A DNA stretch of 64,000 nucleotides from Methanothrix sp. (GTDB lineage Archaea > Halobacteriota > Methanosarcinia > Methanotrichales > Methanotrichaceae), in assembly GCA_963682135.1 (NCBI GenBank), contig OY821645.1:1184001-1248000 (forward strand), given 5' to 3'. The notes below the pieces were generated by a model. It made no database searches. It was not told where the DNA came from and worked only from the letters and a program-made list of their open reading frames with translations. Numbering within the stretch: the stretch's first letter is position 1; each line of letters starts with the position of its first letter. Positions 2,321 to 61,113 of the stretch are shown piece by piece. Both the position numbers and the translations under genes were made by a program.

Positions 2321-4597
2321 TTAGCTCATGGCGCCGGCAGCTTTCTGCCAGGCCATGATCTTCTTGGGGCTGATGCCTGTCACCTTCGCCAGACTGCCGG
2401 ACTTGGCCTGTGCCAAATCCGCAGCCGTTTTAATTCCTGCGCCTGCCAGCTTCTCCAGGGTCTTGGGCCCAATTCCCGACAGAGCCACAAGGCCGTCGCC
2501 CTTTGCCTGAGCATCAGTCGTTGCCTTTTTCTTGGTTGTTGCCGCTTTCCTGGCCTTCGGTTTGCTTTCTTCTGCAGTCTTGGCAGGGTCCGTCTTTTCC
2601 TGGGCTTTCTTGGCCTGCCACTCCAGAAAATTACAGTGGGGGCATCCCAGATCCCAGGGCCTCTTGCCCTTGTTGATAATGCGAATGTGCAGCATGCCGT
2701 GCGTCTCGCAGAGCTTGTCGGTTACGATCACCGTTCCAAACCTGGGAAGAGGCAGAGTAAAACGGCATTCCGGATAGCCGGAGCAGCCGATGAAACGAGT
2801 GCCACGGTGGCCGCGCCGAATTATGAGATCTGATTTGCACTTCTGGCAGGTTCCCACAATCTTGTCGGTGCGCAGGCCGTCTTTGAGCGACTGGCCGATT
2901 CCGTCCTGGTTAGTGGTCAGTTCATCGAAGACAGAGGTAAGCATGACCCGCGACTTCTCGAGGACCTCATCCTCCTTGATATTTCGCTCGGAAATGAGGG
3001 TCATATCGTTCTCTAAAGTCTGGGTCATCTCCGGCTTGGTGATGGTAGGGGCATATTTTTGCAGCGTATCCACCACGGCATAAGCAGTATTGGTGGGGCG
3101 CATGGGGTTGCCCTGCACGTAAGCTCGGGCATAGAGTTTGCTGATAATATCGTGCCTGGTGGACTTCGTTCCCAGTCCCAGTTCATCCATGAGCTTGATG
3201 AGCTTGCCCTGACCGAAGCGAGCCGGGGGCTGTGTCTCTTTAGCATCGACTGCGTGGCCCAGCACCCGCAGCCGCTCTCCTTGCGTCAGCTTGGGCAGGA
3301 TGTGCTCCTCGGCCTTGCTGTAAGGATAATAGTATCTCCAGCCCGGCTCCACCAGACGTGCTCCATTGGCCCGGAAGGGCTCGGGTCCAATATCCACCTT
3401 GAGGCTGGTGGCATCCCAGACGCACGGCTCGGCCAGGGTGGCGAAGAAGCGACGCACCACCAGCTCATAAATGCGCCACTGATCCTCCTTGAGCTCGCTC
3501 TTGGCAACGGTGGCGGTGGGGTAGATTGGCGGGTGGTCGGTTGTGGACCTTTTGCCGCGCGTTGCAATCATCTTTCCTTTGAGCAGCCGCTCTGCTTCTT
3601 CTGAAAAAGCACTATTTAGGAAAAGTCGGGTTAGTGCCACCAGGTCAATGGATGGCGGATAAACAGTATTGTCTGTTCTAGGGTAGGAGATGAAACCATT
3701 GATGTAGAGCCATTCTCCGATGCGCATGGCATTGGCCGCAGAGAAGCCTATACCGCTGGCGGCGGAGATGAAGCTGGTGGTGTCAAAAGGAGCCGGAGGC
3801 TTATCAATACGCGGTTTTGTCTCGATGGACTTGATTATGCCCACAGGGCCGAGACGTGCTATTATCTCGTCAACCTCGGCCTTCTCCCAGATGCGCCCCT
3901 TGGCATGCTGAACGCGAAGCTCTTTCTCCAGATCGGCATAAATCTCCCAGTATGCCTCGGGAACAAATGACGAAATCTCTCGTTCTCTATCCACGATGAG
4001 GGCCAGGGTGGGCGATTGGACCCGGCCCACGGAGAGAAACTCTTTGCCAAGTCGCCCGGAGGTAAGGGAGATATATCTGGTCAGAGCCGCGCCCCAAACC
4101 AAATCTATGATCTGCCTGGCCTCGCCCGAGGCTGCCAGGTCAAAGTCAACTTTTCCCGCATCTTTGAAGGCCTTTAATATCTCTTCTTTGACAATGGCGC
4201 TGTATCTGACGCGATCGGCATGCAGGCCGGGATTTACCTCTTTGGCAATCTTTAATGCCTCAACACCGATCAGCTCTCCTTCGCGATCGTAATCCGTGGC
4301 AATGGTGATGCGATCGGCCTTCTTTCCCAGGTTTTGCAGAGCCGCGATGATCTTTTCCTGTATGGGACGAACCACTATCTCTGCTCTGATGAGGTCTTTG
4401 CAGTCCACCTTCTGCCAGTTGTTGTATCCTTGCGGATAATCAACACCCACAATGTGGCCGGATAGTCCCATGACCACTTTGTCGTCAAAGCAATAGGTAT
4501 CTACGCCTGCCACTCGCTTGGAGCTGGGCTTGCTGCCTGCCAGGATCTGAGCAATCCTCTTAGCGGCATCGTGCTTCTCTGCTATTATGAGATGCAT
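2321..4597 (-). CDS. topA: DNA topoisomerase I (type IA)
   Basis: TOPRIM IIAEK and ATDYDREGE, SVGRVQSPTL, active-site ISYPRTD, C-terminal Zn ribbons and HhH. Confidence 0.97.
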   Translation of the reverse strand: MHLIIAEKHDAAKRIAQILAGSKPSSKRVAGVDTYCFDDKVVMGLSGHIVGVDYPQGYNNWQKVDCKDLIRAEIVVRPIQEKIIAALQNLGKKADRITIATDYDREGELIGVEALKIAKEVNPGLHADRVRYSAIVKEEILKAFKDAGKVDFDLAASGEARQIIDLVWGAALTRYISLTSGRLGKEFLSVGRVQSPTLALIVDREREISSFVPEAYWEIYADLEKELRVQHAKGRIWEKAEVDEIIARLGPVGIIKSIETKPRIDKPPAPFDTTSFISAASGIGFSAANAMRIGEWLYINGFISYPRTDNTVYPPSIDLVALTRLFLNSAFSEEAERLLKGKMIATRGKRSTTDHPPIYPTATVAKSELKEDQWRIYELVVRRFFATLAEPCVWDATSLKVDIGPEPFRANGARLVEPGWRYYYPYSKAEEHILPKLTQGERLRVLGHAVDAKETQPPARFGQGKLIKLMDELGLGTKSTRHDIISKLYARAYVQGNPMRPTNTAYAVVDTLQKYAPTITKPEMTQTLENDMTLISERNIKEDEVLEKSRVMLTSVFDELTTNQDGIGQSLKDGLRTDKIVGTCQKCKSDLIIRRGHRGTRFIGCSGYPECRFTLPLPRFGTVIVTDKLCETHGMLHIRIINKGKRPWDLGCPHCNFLEWQAKKAQEKTDPAKTAEESKPKARKAATTKKKATTDAQAKGDGLVALSGIGPKTLEKLAGAGIKTAADLAQAKSGSLAKVTGISPKKIMAWQKAAGAMS

Positions 4598-15002: not shown

Positions 15003-16253
15003 TCACAACCAGCGTGCTCCAGACAGACCCGCCCTGGCTATTGTCTCCTTCTTTGCTCGCAGCCGGACAATCAACTCATCTTCATAGCTTACCGACAACA
15101 GCTCAGCGGTCTCGTAGAGCCGGGAAAGCTCCGAGAGGCCCTGTGCTGTGTAAGGCAGAGTGAGTTTATACTCCTGCAATGGCAGCAGACGCTGAGAGAT
15201 GCACTCTTCCAGCACTCCCAGGCCCTGGCCGGTAACGGCCGAGGCAAAAACAGGATATGGGGCCAAATCCCGGATCAGCTCCACCAACTCCTCTGCCTTG
15301 CCCTCTTCCAGCCGGTCCGCCTTGTTCAGAACGGTCACTATGGGCGCAGAGACCTCGCAGTCCCAGAGTGCTTTGTGCGAGGCCGCCAATTTACGTCGCA
15401 ACAATTCCGGCGGATCGCTACCGTCCGCTACGAGAAGCACCAGATCCGCCTCAGATATCTCAGAAAGAGTGGACCTGAAGGCCTTTATGAGGAAGTGGGG
15501 CAGATCGTCAATGAAGCCGACGGTATCTGTGAGGAGGACCTTTCTGCCCATAACCTCCCGCGCCCGGGTAGTGGGCGAAAGAGTAGTAAAAGGCTGGTCC
15601 TTGGCTTCTACCTTAGAACCGGTGAGGGCGTTGAGCAACGTAGACTTGCCGGCGTTGGTATAGCCGGCCAGGGCCACCAGATCAAAGCCCTGCTCTCTGC
15701 GCCGCTGCCGTCTATCCTCGCCCATGTTCTCCACATTTGCGAGCTCAGTGCGGATCTTGGCCATTCTTCCCCGGATGTCGTGGTACATGGACTGCTCATA
15801 AGCTCCGGCGCCCCGAAATCCCGGCTGCTCGCCACGCTTTTTCAGGGCGAGGGCATTTTTTACCTGGGGGGCATCATAGCTGAGCTTTGCCAGTTCTACC
15901 TGCAGTTTTGCCTCTCGGGTGGAGGCACGGGTGGAAAAGATCTCTAAAATGAGGTTGAACCTGTCCAGCACCCTGGCAGAAAACTCGCTTGTGATATTGA
16001 ATACCTGGTTGGGGCTGAGTGCATTGTAGAAAATCAGTTTTTCCGGATGGTAGCTCAAGGCCTCTTCGATCTTTCCCCGTCCCATCTGGAAGCGAGAGTC
16101 CCGGCTCCTGCGCTGGAAAACCTCCGCTAAGACCCGATATCCGGCTGCTTGTGCCAGGCCGCGAAGCTCTATCATCTTATATGCATCTGGCGACTTGATC
16201 GGGTTTTCTCGCATTAGCAGGACGGCGGTCTTTTCTTCATTCATCACTTTCAA
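15003..16253 (-). CDS. hflX: GTPase HflX
   Basis: EAKLQVELA, GYTNAGKSTL, DTVGFI, NKAD. Confidence 0.95.
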   Translation of the reverse strand: MKVMNEEKTAVLLMRENPIKSPDAYKMIELRGLAQAAGYRVLAEVFQRRSRDSRFQMGRGKIEEALSYHPEKLIFYNALSPNQVFNITSEFSARVLDRFNLILEIFSTRASTREAKLQVELAKLSYDAPQVKNALALKKRGEQPGFRGAGAYEQSMYHDIRGRMAKIRTELANVENMGEDRRQRRREQGFDLVALAGYTNAGKSTLLNALTGSKVEAKDQPFTTLSPTTRAREVMGRKVLLTDTVGFIDDLPHFLIKAFRSTLSEISEADLVLLVADGSDPPELLRRKLAASHKALWDCEVSAPIVTVLNKADRLEEGKAEELVELIRDLAPYPVFASAVTGQGLGVLEECISQRLLPLQEYKLTLPYTAQGLSELSRLYETAELLSVSYEDELIVRLRAKKETIARAGLSGARWL

Positions 16254-30039: not shown

Positions 30040-30520
30040 GGCATGCAATCCTGTGCTCGTATCCCATCGCCTCCACCCGTCGCCGTTGGCCTCCCTGCAC
30101 CACCCAGATCTCCTCCACCACTACCATCTCTCTGATCACCGTCAGGGCGCACACCTTGCGGGCCGCCTGCAGCCCATCCGGCCCGACGGTGAAGGCCGGC
30201 TCATAGTCCCCGCCCGTGCTCATCACCATCTCCCGCGCCTATCTCCGGTCCCACCACCTCCGCCAGGCCAGCGGCCACGGGCAACGCCTCTTCCTGCACC
30301 ACAAAGCCCACCCGGCTCACCTGCGCCAGGTCGGAGAGCGAGAGCGCCAGGCCGTCGATGTTGTCCATTACGGTCGTGACTGCCTGGCTTTTGGCCTGGG
30401 CCCGGCCCGCGGCCAGGCGCTTCTCGGGCTCCAGCGGCCTCGTGATGAACTCGCCCTCCACTGCACTGCTGCCAGGCCCACAGGCCCCCGCCCGCCCGCG
30501 CCCAGCGCGCGCGGGCGGGA
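30040..30520 (-). pseudogene. thiL: degenerate 3' fragment of thiL (copy 2)
   Basis: MDNIDGLALSLSDLAQVSRVGF..LP, GGDYEPAFTV, GYEHRI. Confidence 0.75.
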
Positions 30521-30705: not shown

Positions 30706-31224
30706 ATGAAGAAAGGGAATGCGCTAATGGCATTAATCTTGTTGTTTAGTGCGGTGGTTTTCGTAACGCCGTTGGCTTTACCAAAAGAAGAACCTATGGC
30801 CGTACCAAATGCTTCGCTAAGCGCATTATCCAACAAGACCGAACTCGTTTCATTTGTTGAGAGTGCTGTGGCCTATGCCCAAAAGAACGGCAAAGATAAA
30901 GCACTCAAGGAGTTCAGCAATAATACCGGCTTATTTGTCCAAGGGGACTTCTACATCTACGCTTACGACTTCAATGGAACTTGCCTTGCCCACCCATTCA
31001 AATCCGATTGGATAGGCAAAAACAAGCTGGATGTAACTGATTCGAATGGCGTTCCATCTCTCAAGAACACTATCAATGTAGCCAGGGAGGGGAAAGGATT
31101 CACTTACTTCATCTTCCCGAACCCTGCTCACGATAATAGAGATGAATTCAAGATTGCTTACGCGATGAAAGTGGATGACGATTGGTTCCTTGGATCTGGA
31201 ATCTACATATCGTGTCCGCAATAG
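30706..31224 (+). CDS. secreted single Cache domain protein
   Basis: YIYAYDFNGTCLAHP, D.NG, WFLGSGIY. Confidence 0.85.
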   Translation: MKKGNALMALILLFSAVVFVTPLALPKEEPMAVPNASLSALSNKTELVSFVESAVAYAQKNGKDKALKEFSNNTGLFVQGDFYIYAYDFNGTCLAHPFKSDWIGKNKLDVTDSNGVPSLKNTINVAREGKGFTYFIFPNPAHDNRDEFKIAYAMKVDDDWFLGSGIYISCPQ

Positions 31225-31595: not shown

Positions 31596-31775
31596 ATATG
31601 GGACTGATCTTCTCCGCCAATGCCTCTGGCTCCTTAGTTGTTCCTAAGTCCAAGTCCATGAAGAAGTTACTGTTGTCCTGATCATACAGGCTGCTAAATC
31701 CAGAATTTTAATGATGATATTACACGCAAGTGTCTATTAATATTAGGAATGCATTCTAGGGTATGGAGTGCAAAA

Positions 31776-32183
31776 ATGAGACTTAGAGTAATCAGCGCCA
31801 GAAATGAAATACCAAATTTGAACCCAAATGAGAAGACAGTTCACCTGGCCTTCCGAGCCAGTAATGTAGATTTCCTTAACCTGATGCAGAGATGCCCCAG
31901 GCTGAGAATGATTCAGGTCCCGCCATCCTACCGCAAGACTATGTCCAATGCCATCCAGGTATTCCTGGAGATGCAGGGCGTTGAGATGCTGGAAGGCGAC
32001 GTATGGGGCCACAGAAAAGACCTGGATGAGTACTTCACTGTAGAAGATGCCACTATGGAAGAGATTCGCGCCCTGGCTGCCAGCGGCGCATCTGCCGATG
32101 ATGTAGCCAATCAGATTCAGAGAAAGTCCAGGATCGGCTCAGAGCTGATCAAGTACATCGCCAAGACTAAAATTACCGCCTGA
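31776..32183 (+). CDS. DUF1699 family protein
   Basis: MRLRVISARNEI..VHLAFRASN..EGDVWGHRKD. Confidence 0.85.
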   Translation: MRLRVISARNEIPNLNPNEKTVHLAFRASNVDFLNLMQRCPRLRMIQVPPSYRKTMSNAIQVFLEMQGVEMLEGDVWGHRKDLDEYFTVEDATMEEIRALAASGASADDVANQIQRKSRIGSELIKYIAKTKITA

Positions 32184-32324
32184 GTCCGCAACTCTGTGCC
32201 CGGCTCAGCTACCCCCCCCTAATTTATTATTTGTCGATTTTCTAGTCCTATATTTTTTTCGACCGCCAACTACAAATATCTATAACGATTATATAGATAG
32301 TTTGTCGCTTCGTGCCATTGAATA

Positions 32325-32726
32325 GGGTGGCGGGTGTGCCGTGGGCTTAACGTATCCGATGATGCTCTGATGATGGAGATGCATGCCTTCGTGGCACTGC
32401 ATTTGGCTACGGGCCTGTGAGGCTGTAAAACATCGGCGGGCTGAAAAAGTTGCGTGCTGTGACAGGTGCAGCAATCCGCCGGATCTCACGCTAATACACG
32501 GTCGGGGGCACGAGTCGGCACAGGTAGAAGCCGAGGACGAGAGGGCGAGCAGCATGGCCCTGCGAGAAAGGGTTCCTATAAAACGGACGCTGTGCGAGAT
32601 TCCAGCGCTAATGCCGCCTTCCACCCAGGCTAATTAAAGTCGAGCTTCGGGCAGGGTCAGGCCACCACCTCGCGGTGATTGGCTCCTCTGCAAGAGGGCG
32701 CAGTGGATTATGCGCAGGCCCTGCCT
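32325..32726 (+). ncRNA. candidate large structured ncRNA
   Basis: Terminal pairing, many hairpins, 3' four-way junction, TATA-like element at about 32289. Confidence 0.6.
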
Positions 32727-32888
32727 GGGACTTGATATCGCTTTTCTTGATCATTACTCTGAGCAGGATAGTATGTTCTCAACTTGAAGCGAAATCCTTT
32801 TATCTCGGTAATTGACGTACAGTGTATTGGCGAAAGTCGATGGCCAAATTTCCCTCCTACATCCAATTGACTTTCTCCTCCCTCCTTC

Positions 32889-33524
32889 TTATCCATATTT
32901 CAGGAACCTTAAATTTCCTCCAGCGTTTCTATGCCGATCTTCTTCACGGATCAGCTCATCTTCCACAGCCAGATTTCTGTTCACCCAGTAAAACCGGGAA
33001 AAGAGCAATCCCACAGTTGGGCAGTCGTCCGGCTCGTACCACTTCAGATAATCTTCGATATTATCAAAGTGGCTCGGTGCATCCGGATGGTATAAACCTT
33101 CCCAGGGCATGGGAGTGGGCGGCTTGGCGGTTACATCCATAGAAAGCAGTTCCCGGCACAGATAGAGGAGCATGTTGCTGATGTTATCCTCTCCTCCATA
33201 GGTTAGGTAGGCATTGGCGGTGACCACAACCTTTGCAGGTGCTGAGGAGCTGAGCCAGTATGATTGATCGTCGCCGAGGCATACGATGGGCTTACGCTTT
33301 CCGATCTCACTCATCTTGGGCTCGATCTCATCCCAGAGGGCTTCGCTGCCGCGATGCGTGAAAATCAGGTCTGATTGTTCCATGGACTTTATTGCTTCGT
33401 CCAGAAGGCCGGGCTGATCGTCCAGTCGCTGGGTGGAAAAGAGCCGCAGATCGAATCCGAGGCGCTTGCAGGCTTTGGCAATTATCTGCAGATATGAATT
33501 TCCAACAAGACAGGTGAGTTTCAT
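32889..33524 (-). pseudogene. cobN: truncated cobaltochelatase CobN (N-terminal ~200 aa only)
   Basis: YLTYGGEDNISNML, PWEGLYHPDA, VGLLFSR; stops far short of the usual >1000 aa. Confidence 0.8.
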
Positions 33525-61022: not shown

Positions 61023-61113
61023 GGGCTCGTAGCTCAGTTAGGCAGAGCGTCTGGCTTTTAAATTTTTGTGTGAAGATACCAGGTGGTCGAGGGTTCAAAT
61101 CCCCCCGAGCCCG
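61023..61113 (+). tRNA. tRNA-Lys(UUU) with a 17-nt intron at position 37/38 (61061-61077)
   Basis: Acceptor stem GGGCTCG/CGAGCCC, D arm, anticodon CT-TTT-A, T-loop GTTCAAAT, BHB-compatible intron. Confidence 0.92.

Follow-up and report, generated by a model that had tools for sequence, protein, structure and literature searches.

The locus and its transcripts

The window analysed here is a 64,000-nt stretch of DNA from Methanothrix sp. (GCA_963682135.1, contig OY821645.1), and all positions refer to its numbering. Near its middle, the plus strand carries a gene for a large structured non-coding RNA, followed by a gene for a small hairpin RNA and preceded by a gene of the DUF1699 family:

31749–32183, plus strand: DUF1699 (PF08004) gene, upstream neighbour (Pfam E = 8e-56)
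32257–32299, plus strand: conserved upstream block, promoter region of the large RNA, with two A/T boxes
32274–32285, plus strand: upstream A/T box AAATATCTATAA, inside the A/T stretch 32272–32285
32289–32296, plus strand: downstream A/T box TTATATAG, conserved
32300–32745 (ends approximate), plus strand: large structured non-coding RNA gene, ~440 nt (covariation, RNA depth, no conserved ORF, no Rfam match)
32742–32748, plus strand: T-rich tract TTTTCTT, predicted terminator of the large RNA (sequence; RNA depth falls off before 32726–32779)
32788–32905, plus strand: small hairpin RNA (sRNA) gene with anti-Shine–Dalgarno (anti-SD) motifs, second gene of the unit (inverted repeat)
32790–32805, plus strand: BRE/TATA-like sequence of the sRNA gene
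32829–32838 with 32869–32878, plus strand: sRNA hairpin
32852–32857, plus strand: sRNA loop CCCUCC
32877–32887, plus strand: sRNA tail CCUCCCUCCUU

The conserved upstream block is retained in 72 distinct upstream segments, including those of other genera, and homology among dispersed copies starts at 32257–32263. An initial annotation of this DNA, whose quoted sequence strings are all present at the positions given, had named a TATA-like element at about 32289. This element, TTATATAG, is conserved as such; however, it lies only 6 nt ahead of the nucleotide at which pairing in the RNA begins, and for this reason the A/T stretch at 32272–32285 is the better candidate. The helix P0 described below requires a transcript start at or before ~32303, which favours the upstream box as well—making it the better placed TATA box of the large RNA, as judged from sequence. 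The 5′ strand of P0 (32303–32316) also places the start of the RNA upstream of GGGTGG (32325), where the initial annotation had assumed the 5′ end. Promoter-like copies occur elsewhere in the genome, and no Rfam RNA lies downstream of these. At the other end of the gene, a T-rich tail follows the 3′ domain in most of 56 copies. Oligo-T tracts terminate transcription in archaea, and TTTTCTT at 32742–32748 is likely to be such a terminator.

In wetland RNA libraries, the depth of RNA contigs reaches 10^4–10^6 on the large RNA, within 32294–32725—a figure that stems from assembled contigs of at least 90% likeness, summed over paralogs and strains, and that gives neither strand, transcript ends, nor true level; RNA libraries can also contain DNA. 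For the bin 32348–32401, the summed contig depth ranges from 24,098 to 1,191,444 across four libraries, which represent one year and one habitat and may be one campaign. The flanks show a depth of 0 at 32186–32293 and of at most 0.7 at 32726–32779, and the upstream DUF1699 gene reaches maxima of 44–542 in the same four libraries; the depth on the RNA is 10^2–10^4 times that of DUF1699. The large RNA is expressed as a separate unit, and its apparent abundance is very high. Back-joints (32507 to 32375) and several skips amount to at most 0.2% of the depth and are taken as reverse-transcription or assembly artefacts; in one contig from the RNA libraries, 32184 is joined directly to 32788 and the RNA is left out. 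The depth of 0–7 on the sRNA gene is uninformative, because libraries of this kind tend to lose small RNAs.

A fold maintained by compensatory changes

Folded on its own, the window copy reaches a minimum free energy of −178.4 kcal/mol on the plus strand (z = −1.10; 14 of 100 shuffles are as stable) and of −142.2 kcal/mol on the minus strand (z = +0.16). The fold of this single copy is not better than chance, and it is the comparison within the family that carries the structural proof. Across an alignment of 56 distinct homologous copies, a model of 136 pairs is 93.0% paired, against 34–42.5% with slid partners. Two-sided changes occur at 43 pairs, with 148 compensatory cells, against 23–32 pairs and 32–74 cells with slid partners. 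None of 500 shuffles attains any of these measures, a control that overstates significance because the copies are related. Compensatory changes in the 3′ domain can also be read by eye, in copies L045, L064, L141, L012, L111, and L019. These changes clearly show that the fold of the RNA is under selection, and the multi-domain plus-strand structure claimed in the initial annotation is thereby backed by covariation. The fold is built from a 5′ domain closed by P0 with two branched arms, a variable centre with two hairpins, and a 3′ four-way junction (pair counts refer to the 56 copies and those of P0 to 74 distinct copies):

32303–32316, plus strand: P0 5′ strand, pairs with 32507–32520 and closes the 5′ domain
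32507–32520, plus strand: P0 3′ strand, pairs with 32303–32316; P0 was also found as an inverted repeat
32325–32333, plus strand: P1 5′ strand GGGUGGCGG, pairs with 32614–32626 and crosses P0
32336–32503, plus strand: 5′-domain core (pair counts in 56 copies)
32336–32343 with 32497–32503, plus strand: P2
32344–32347 with 32412–32415, plus strand: P2b
32351–32354 with 32408–32411, plus strand: P3
32356–32359 with 32403–32406, plus strand: P4
32365–32368 with 32375–32378, plus strand: P5
32379–32402, plus strand: P6 hairpin
32416–32422 with 32484–32490, plus strand: P7
32434–32439 with 32476–32481, plus strand: P8
32449–32475, plus strand: P9 hairpin
32490–32496, plus strand: invariant junction GCUAAUA (aligned copies)
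32521–32613, plus strand: central region, variable and purine-rich, with two conserved hairpins
32574–32587, plus strand: central hairpin, 82% paired (56 copies)
32588–32607, plus strand: central hairpin, 97.8% paired (56 copies)
32640–32735, plus strand: 3′ domain with four-way junction and three hairpins (pair counts in 56 copies)
32640–32659 with 32716–32735, plus strand: closing stack of the 3′ domain
32661–32683, 32684–32698, and 32699–32714, plus strand: hairpins of the 3′ domain

P0 comprises 14 bp, and RNAduplex recovers it in each of the 74 distinct copies (median −25 kcal/mol); it shows two-sided changes at 7 of its 14 pairs (41 compensatory cells) and overlaps another modelled helix, P10. 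This 5′ helix had been missed in the initial annotation, as had the hairpin at 32449–32475 and the helices CGUA/UACG, CCGA/UUGG, and CUCU/GGAG. For P1, pairing reaches 97.1% in the segment GGCGG/CCGCC, where all changes are one-sided, and 82% in the segment GGGU/GCCC, which shows no covariation (56 copies each). Since P1 bears no compensatory change, it is considered no more than plausible; if real, it would form a pseudoknot linking the 5′ end with the segment immediately preceding the 3′ domain. The initially proposed pairing GGGTGG/CCACCC belongs here: it forms in the window copy, but the family keeps only its GGGU/GCCC part, beside the better-kept GGCGG/CCGCC.

Within the 5′ domain, most of the helices proposed at the outset recur in the family. 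The hairpin at 32379–32402 (AGATGCA...TGCATTT) is 98.8% paired, GTGAGG/TCTCAC appears as GUGAGG/CUCAC (98.2% paired, two-sided changes at 3 pairs), and CGGCGGG/TCCGCCG as CGGCGG/CCGCCG (90.7%, two-sided changes at 4 pairs). CCGTGG/CTACGG had to be rejected: CCGUG pairs with CACGG at 32497–32501, where C-G turns into U-A in 13 sequences, and UACG pairs with CGUA at 32351–32354, with compensatory changes at 2 of 4 pairs. Two unpaired stretches are invariant in the family alignment, GCUAAUA and GAAAAAGUUGC. In most other copies, P5 bears an optional branched arm of 60–90 nt that the window copy lacks.

The central region is poorly resolved in the covariation model. The pairing TCGGC/GCCGA, 67.6% paired in the family, is not conserved and was dropped; GGGC/GCCC (GGG/CCC in the family, 99% paired) and CGCTG/CAGCG (CGCUG/CAGCG, 97.8% paired) hold. 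So does the 3′ four-way junction, whose closing helix lies within an 18-pair stack at 93.5% and whose hairpins are 92.5–98.8% paired. The arm drawn as CCTCT/AGAGG is kept as an arm, but the family retains only three of its base pairs, UCC/GGG.

Several competing folds and searches were discarded. A first RNAalifold fold, pairing GGCGGGC with the 3′ strand GCCUGCC, is broken in copies L045 and L064, which retain the originally proposed 3′ closing helix. For a pseudoknot GCGGCAC/GUGCCGC, the extension shows no covariation, and GCGGC is part of P0. A mutual-information ranking of pairs was dominated by relatedness and alignment gaps, and a loose helix scan was too noisy. A scan for further tertiary helices of at least 4 bp among the unpaired columns found none.

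Non-coding status, distribution, and genomic setting

The open reading frames overlapping the RNA are spurious, as initially held: the frame is not conserved and indels do not come in threes (477 of 502 indel runs among the copies are not multiples of three). Protein coding was rejected, as the frame of an 84-aa ORF is open in only 2 of 39 copies and Pfam finds no match in the overlapping ORFs. Among known RNA families, cmscan against Rfam 15 (4227 families)—the check proposed at the outset—matched none to the large RNA: a scan of the window at gathering score gave nothing for it, a scan of 32100–32900 with E up to 10 gave only two chance-level rows, and six other copies matched no family at E ≤ 0.1. 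For the 3′ four-way junction, a tRNA, tmRNA, or tRNA-like element was dismissed, since ARAGORN finds 0 tRNA/tmRNA genes in 32200–33000 and the Rfam tRNA model does not match. The models of archaeal RNase P RNA (RF00373) and archaeal SRP RNA (RF01857) do not match at the locus either; this genome encodes both elsewhere, at C1:2973124–2973427 (216 bits) and C1:1929548–1929862 (193.5 bits). Group II introns (domain V/VI) and other catalogued ribozymes likewise gave no covariance-model match in the window copy or the six others, nor did OLE, ROOL, GOLLD, raiA, or HEARO in the scans of the 4227 families. A box C/D sRNA, suggested by UGAUGA and CUGA at 32357–32374, was discarded as well: the first GAUGAUG varies to GAUAAUG or GAUUAUG among the copies, in the family fold CUCU/GGAG of this region forms the base of a simple hairpin or of the optional arm, and the only snoRNA row is a chance-level one downstream of the large RNA (E = 7.1). 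None of the catalogued RNA families thus matches the large RNA. Full-text literature searches, some of them poorly targeted, found no description of it; in the parts accessible, neither PMC10477309 nor PMC13153191 deals with it.

The RNA has a narrow range. BLAST finds it in 23 of 41 relatives, all 23 belonging to the genus of the window, at several places per genome. With a covariance model, R1, 1–7 matches each are obtained in 69 of 105 Methanotrichaceae genomes from 7 of 16 genera, and none in 76 genomes from four other families of the class. Its presence is patchy: no match appears in six of the 58 genus genomes and in nine of the family's 16 genera; one of these genera matched in 0 of its 7 genomes, those seven listed genomes being 91–99% complete. 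A pattern scan of a genome collection used a 17-nt pattern, too short to avoid many chance rows in bacteria, and the rows that could be aligned to the RNA came only from Methanothrix and Methanotrichaceae. Plasmids, phages, and viral contigs gave no match. Among the genomes searched, the RNA is a multi-copy family confined to Methanotrichaceae. The archaeal host initially suggested agrees with these relatives, and one neighbouring locus carries the methanogen gene Mch. Hence, the initial reading as a large archaeal non-coding RNA outside the known classes is supported, with its fold details and 5′ end corrected. The present genome holds 2 copies. Paralogs within one genome differ by 15–30%, which is odd for a housekeeping scaffold.

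Genes adjoining the cassette differ among 21 loci, and the RNA is thus not tied to one gene. The sRNA gene is a constant companion: it follows within 300 nt on the same strand in 38 of 45 distinct copies, and four other genera show the same arrangement at 10 of 13 loci. sRNA genes are also found on their own and outnumber the large RNA (in this genome, 8 copies versus 2). A ~1.2-kb cassette of DUF1699, RNA, and sRNA recurs within the genus only, where a cross-tabulation of 14 genomes places a DUF1699 paralog 100–700 nt upstream on the same strand in 18 of 51 large-RNA copies (another adjacency count, 20 of 35, is biased, as 30 loci were retrieved by a DUF1699 query). Within the class, 148 of 151 genomes contain DUF1699, which is a multi-copy family there. 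It was rejected as the partner protein, given that it lies upstream at 0 of 13 loci of other genera and that its range far exceeds that of the RNA. Its predicted model (pLDDT 87) finds no convincing fold match (Foldseek best E 0.011, TM 0.28; VIA best Z 6.1). Only three C-terminal helices match HTH/homeodomain-like domains (Z about 5), and a PDB sequence search yields only bS6 (E about 0.1). Gene fragments lie near the unit, namely a 211-aa CobN piece ending inside it and a Cache fragment.

Possible roles and comparison with known systems

We consider it probable that this separately transcribed ~440-nt RNA of a multi-copy Methanotrichaceae family works in trans, as a structural RNA of high stability; the scaffold of a ribonucleoprotein or a self-assembling RNA would be its likeliest form. 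The invariant core would supply the binding or active surface, whereas the variable centre and the optional arm on P5 would be peripheral. Its conserved association with the anti-SD sRNA gene may point to a function close to the control of translation. A more specific version, in which the RNA is the subunit of a Methanotrichaceae-specific machine—ribonucleoprotein or RNA-only—coupled to the anti-SD sRNAs as a translation-control layer, is possible but of low probability.

Four other readings were weighed. The RNA might regulate translation together with the anti-SD sRNAs, serving these or their targets as an abundant sponge or docking platform, which we regard as unlikely. Such a role would account for the joint occurrence of the two genes, and in 25 of 35 units of the genus the junction CGCUAAUA(CAC) is complementary over 8–11 nt to the start of the sRNA hairpin (shuffle mean 5–6 nt). 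However, of nine units tested from other genera, only two carry 7 nt at the same place, which 17–18 of 100 shuffles match, and four have only 5 nt, the chance level. As judged from the TATA position, most of the complementary stretch would lie upstream of the likely sRNA start. Moreover, when the sRNA body was searched without restriction for duplexes with the large RNA, the outcome was no better than for shuffles, and the independent occurrence of sRNA genes speaks against this reading as well.

Somewhat less probable again is a ribozyme of a new class, with the invariant junctions forming the active site. Size, multi-junction architecture, and an invariant core with a variable periphery do resemble large ribozymes; the unpaired GCUAAUA and GAAAAAGUUGC fit, and the covarying long-range P0—and P1, if formed—would pre-organise such a core. 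Yet the Rfam scans match neither RNase P, group I or II introns, nor small self-cleaver families; there is no candidate substrate, and no conserved cleavage junction is visible, with the skipped or back-joined contigs at about 0.2% of the depth at most.

Lower still we place the idea of a selfish, duplicating, or mobile non-autonomous cassette, whose RNA would serve only its spread or be a relic. Dispersed copies do have sharp homology limits (32257–32263 to 32890–32905), tandem copies exist (e.g., G012:C5), and the contig that skips the RNA, the fragmented neighbouring genes, and the recurring 1.2-kb cassette point the same way. On the contrary, no inverted repeat links the two ends, no target-site duplication could be read by eye in the flanks of aligned copies, and a DDE transposase adjoins only 1 of 21 loci—findings by which the end of a MITE or an insertion sequence was rejected. 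The empty search of plasmids, phages, and viral contigs, the selection on the fold, the very high apparent expression, and the retention of the same locus beside DUF1699 in several species also argue against mobility. A cis-acting part of a neighbouring mRNA, be it an extended structured 3′ UTR belonging to DUF1699 or a leader that controls the sRNA, can be dismissed as very improbable: the RNA lies on the same strand near the DUF1699 stop codon (32183) and the sRNA promoter (32790), but the near-empty flanks, the depth excess over DUF1699, the RNA's own conserved promoter block and T-tract, and the lack of DUF1699 upstream in 33 of 51 genus copies and 13 of 13 other-genus loci contradict it.

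The large RNA has ribozyme-like complexity, and compensatory changes have maintained it in at least seven genera; nothing catalogued matches it, and its apparent wetland depth exceeds that of the neighbouring gene by factors from hundreds to tens of thousands. To our knowledge, archaea have few large structured RNAs without an assigned function. The conserved pairing with an anti-ribosome-binding-site sRNA gene gives a concrete experimental handle, and identifying partners or an activity could reveal a new RNA-based function. In wetlands, rice fields, and digesters, Methanothrix and its relatives belong to the chief methane producers that consume acetate; the RNA could give a specific, abundant marker for active Methanothrix cells. 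If true, a machine working with anti-SD sRNAs would amount to an RNA-based layer of translation control in organisms that produce, from acetate, a large share of global biogenic methane.

OLE (RF01071), ROOL, GOLLD, and raiA are large orphan structured non-coding RNAs of bacteria. The present RNA resembles them in its several hundred nucleotides, covarying multi-junction fold, narrow range, abundance, and non-coding nature. Unlike these, it is archaeal, matches nothing in Rfam 15, has several diverged paralogs per genome, and usually precedes an anti-SD sRNA gene (the 38 of 45 copies above). OLE adjoins its oap genes; the large RNA, by contrast, has no conserved gene for a protein partner alongside. 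With archaeal RNase P and SRP RNA it shares a length of 300–450 nt, a G+C content richer than its surroundings, and a compact multi-helix fold, along with being stable, abundant, and served by its own promoter; it differs in being multi-copy, in its restriction to one methanogen family, and in scoring with neither model. A possible likeness exists to 6S RNA and to sponges of the CsrB/RsmZ type, which are abundant, trans-acting, and sometimes paralogous. The large RNA is, however, far more intricately folded than these; its loops lack a repeated short binding motif such as the GGA of CsrB, and it does not have the open-promoter-like shape of 6S RNA.

For the downstream gene (32788–32905), the closest parallel is the sRNA41 type of Methanosarcina mazei, an anti-Shine–Dalgarno small RNA of methanogens. 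Like that type, it combines a small hairpin with C-rich CCUCC motifs, an archaeal promoter, and multiple copies, and its motifs are likewise complementary to ribosome-binding sites, the targets here being putative. It differs in belonging to another sequence family and in being physically coupled to the gene of a large structured RNA.

Copies, range and known RNA families

The large RNA sits in a 700-nt intergenic gap, its G+C content (0.55–0.62) set off from about 0.44 in the adjacent sequence, and every sequence string quoted for this site in the initial annotation was found there. The gap lies between two features:

31749–32183, + strand: DUF1699 gene, upstream neighbour
32889–33524, − strand: CobN-like gene fragment of 211 aa, downstream neighbour

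That annotation could not assign the RNA, and Rfam 15 leaves it unmatched as well: the sole match in the window is a remote intron-bearing archaeal tRNA gene (61023–61113, + strand; 55 bits; 18-nt insertion after the anticodon-loop position), and a search of 32100–32900 at E up to 10 returned nothing beyond two chance-level rows. Six further copies, some of other genera, were likewise without an Rfam match. RNase P RNA and SRP RNA of this genome are located elsewhere, and ARAGORN found nothing at the site.

Homologues are nevertheless plentiful close by. Of 41 relatives searched by BLAST with 32280–32760, 23 matched—all of the window's own genus, each at multiple places—while none of the 16 genomes from other genera did. 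A covariance model of the 5′ core (R1) reached further, with matches in 69 of 105 Methanotrichaceae genomes, comprising 52 of 58 within the genus and 7 of the 16 genera of the family, at 1–7 matches per positive genome; in 76 genomes from four other families of the class it gave 0 matches. In a pattern scan of public records, those related to the large RNA are titled Methanothrix or Methanotrichaceae; the remaining rows are chance hits that cannot be aligned to it, since the search pattern was too short. Further copies in the window's genome (contig C1) and tandem pairs, which lie 1.5–3 kb apart in several genomes, are as follows:

C1:3040781–3041279, − strand: second, diverged copy
2126154–2126250, window's genome: 3′ fragment
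G012:C5:2269–2814 and 3713–4253, a relative's genome: tandem copies
G009:C30:12829–13351 and 15653–16195, a relative's genome: tandem copies
L203, a relative's locus: tandem copies

A multi-domain fold under selection

Folded by itself, the window copy is not convincing (minimum free energy −178.4 kcal/mol, z = −1.10 on the + strand; −142.2 kcal/mol, z = +0.16 on the − strand). The family is. From an alignment of 56 distinct copies, RNAalifold runs combined with a reading of compensatory changes gave a model of 136 pairs in 25 helices, in which 93.0% of cells are paired, compared with 34.0–42.5% when partners are slid by 1–3 columns. The same displacement lowers the pairs changed on both sides from 43 to 23–32 and the compensatory cells from 148 to 32–74. 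None of 500 shuffles matched the model on any measure, a control that overstates significance because the aligned copies are related.

Well-supported elements of the large RNA (+ strand)
32336–32343 with 32497–32503: helix, C-G to U-A in 13 copies
32351–32354 with 32408–32411: helix
32356–32359 with 32403–32406: helix
32379–32402: hairpin
32416–32422 with 32484–32490: helix
32434–32439 with 32476–32481: helix
32449–32475: hairpin, G-C to A-U in 9 and in 7 copies
32588–32607: hairpin
32640–32735: 3′ domain, long closing stack and three hairpins

Much of the fold drawn earlier from the single sequence thus recurs in the family: the hairpin 32379–32402 is among the best-supported helices, GTGAGG/TCTCAC, CGGCGGG/TCCGCCG, GGGC/GCCC and CGCTG/CAGCG are retained, and the second, 3′ domain stands entire. 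GGGTGG/CCACCC is kept in part only, TCGGC/GCCGA is unconserved (67.6% paired), and CCGTGG/CTACGG is not supported, each strand having another, covarying partner. At the CUCU/GGAG hairpin (32365–32378), most copies carry an inserted, branched arm of 60–90 nt that is absent from the window copy.

The conserved "leader" 32303–32316 is exactly complementary to 32507–32520, forming a 5′ helix, P0, which RNAduplex recovered in 74 of 74 distinct copies (median −25 kcal/mol), with two-sided changes at 7 of its 14 pairs (41 cells). Hence, the transcript should start at or before ~32303. P0 overlaps a weaker model helix (32505–32509 with 32556–32560), and it would turn the long-range pairing of 32325–32333 with 32614–32626—whose GGCGG/CCGCC is 97% paired, with no compensatory changes—into a pseudoknot. 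Scanning the unpaired columns for additional conserved helices yielded none.

The overlapping ORFs are spurious, as had been supposed: the 84-aa ORF of the window copy stays open for at least 70 codons in 2 of 39 copies, 477 of the 502 indel runs, counted against the window, have lengths not divisible by three, and Pfam found nothing on ORFs overlapping the large RNA.

Transcription and genomic setting

Among the runs listed as holding part of the stretch, 16 of 24 are RNA libraries. Logan contigs of four wetland metatranscriptomes, which may stem from one campaign, were placed on 31700–33300 at ≥90% likeness. Summed contig depth at 32348–32401 reached 24,098, 279,119, 432,419 and 1,191,444, against at most 44, 59, 542 and 503 in the DUF1699 gene bins; such depths are sums over paralogs and strains, and are informative on neither strand, ends nor true level. 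Depth was 0 in all four runs at 32186–32293, 0–0.7 at 32726–32779 and 0–7 on the downstream small-RNA gene. Despite the caveats on depth, cover from RNA libraries is limited to the predicted large RNA. Some contigs join back from 32507 to 32375 or skip from 32403 to 32483 and from 32522 to 32637, at depths of ~10–500 vs 10^5–10^6 for the RNA; these may be reverse-transcription or assembly artefacts, and circular or processed forms are possible. One further low-depth contig joins 32184 to 32788 and would represent a relative with the small RNA and without the large one.

Upstream, the TATA-like TTATATAG (32289–32296) of the initial annotation is conserved, but an A/T box at 32272–32285 is the better-placed candidate for the TATA box, as TTATATAG lies only 6 nt ahead of P0. 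The A/T boxes at 32274–32284 and 32292–32302 are inverted repeats of each other over 11 nt (91% complementary, 7 nt apart) and might represent an operator-like palindrome across the promoter. Elsewhere in the genome, two places have a similar promoter-like sequence, and neither is followed by an Rfam RNA.

Homology among dispersed copies spans 32257–32263 to 32890–32905, and therefore includes a second unit, a small hairpin RNA gene with anti-Shine-Dalgarno (anti-SD) motifs:

32788–32905, + strand: small-RNA unit with BRE/TATA-like sequence
32829–32838 with 32869–32878, + strand: 10-bp hairpin, G-U pairs on this strand
hairpin loop: CCCUCC
tail: CCUCCCUCCUU

This unit follows within 300 nt on the same strand in 38 of 45 distinct large-RNA copies with enough flank (nine further copies with short flanks were left out) and lies downstream at 10 of 13 loci in four other genera. 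Across genera, the large RNA thus has an anti-SD small-RNA gene as its genomic partner; the window's genome contains 8 small-RNA units vs 2 large-RNA copies.

Other adjoining genes vary among 21 loci. DUF1699, with 6 copies in the window's genome, lies 100–700 nt upstream in at least 18 of 51 copies from 14 genomes of the genus (cross-tabulated lists), and at 0 of 13 loci in other genera. As this small, very conserved protein (PF08004) occurs class-wide (148 of 151 genomes, 2–21 copies) and the adjacency is missing in other genera, we attribute the DUF1699–RNA–sRNA cassette to segmental duplication at the level of the genus and do not take it to indicate a partner protein. The predicted DUF1699 model (pLDDT 87) combines an N-terminal α/β part with a C-terminal three-helix part; no convincing fold match was found, the three helices alone resembling HTH domains (Z ~5). 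In most homologues, the protein begins at the second Met (window 31776), with GGAG ahead of it.

The surroundings resemble an island made up of repeats and broken genes. The 211-aa ORF at 32889–33524 covers profile positions 2–97 of 1090 of CobN/Mg chelatase, its stop codon falling within the repeated unit, and 30706–31224 (+ strand) holds a partial Cache-domain ORF of 172 aa. A G+C-rich island (30046–30513; 0.66–0.71), without Pfam or Rfam match, is a repeat with three other partial genome copies at 81–84% identity, one of which (C1:2182816–2183028) stops 7 nt ahead of a stand-alone hairpin small-RNA unit.

Proposed role and comparison with large orphan RNAs

The large RNA has a promoter of its own, codes for no protein and is apparently very abundant; its multi-domain fold is under selection. 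Most likely, it would act in trans as the stable scaffold of a ribonucleoprotein or RNA-only assembly, whose functional surface would be the invariant core, with the variable arms as periphery.

A translation-linked sponge or dock is one rival: the invariant junction CGCUAAUACAC (32489–32499) is complementary over 11 contiguous bases to 32822–32832, at the start of the downstream hairpin small RNA, and within the genus 25 of 35 units show 8–11 nt of this complementarity. However, the complementarity does not extend to other genera, and searching for duplexes in general showed no signal. Another is a new ribozyme, but no substrate or cleavage site was seen. The multi-copy unit might also be a selfish cassette; terminal inverted repeats are absent, plasmids, phages and viral contigs gave 0 matches, and a transposase lies beside one of the 21 loci only. 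Against a cis element argue the depth gaps flanking the RNA.

A full-text literature search found no description of the large RNA. By Rfam, the window copy and six further copies belong to none of OLE, ROOL, GOLLD and raiA, the large orphan RNAs of bacteria; in kind, however, the large RNA is like them.
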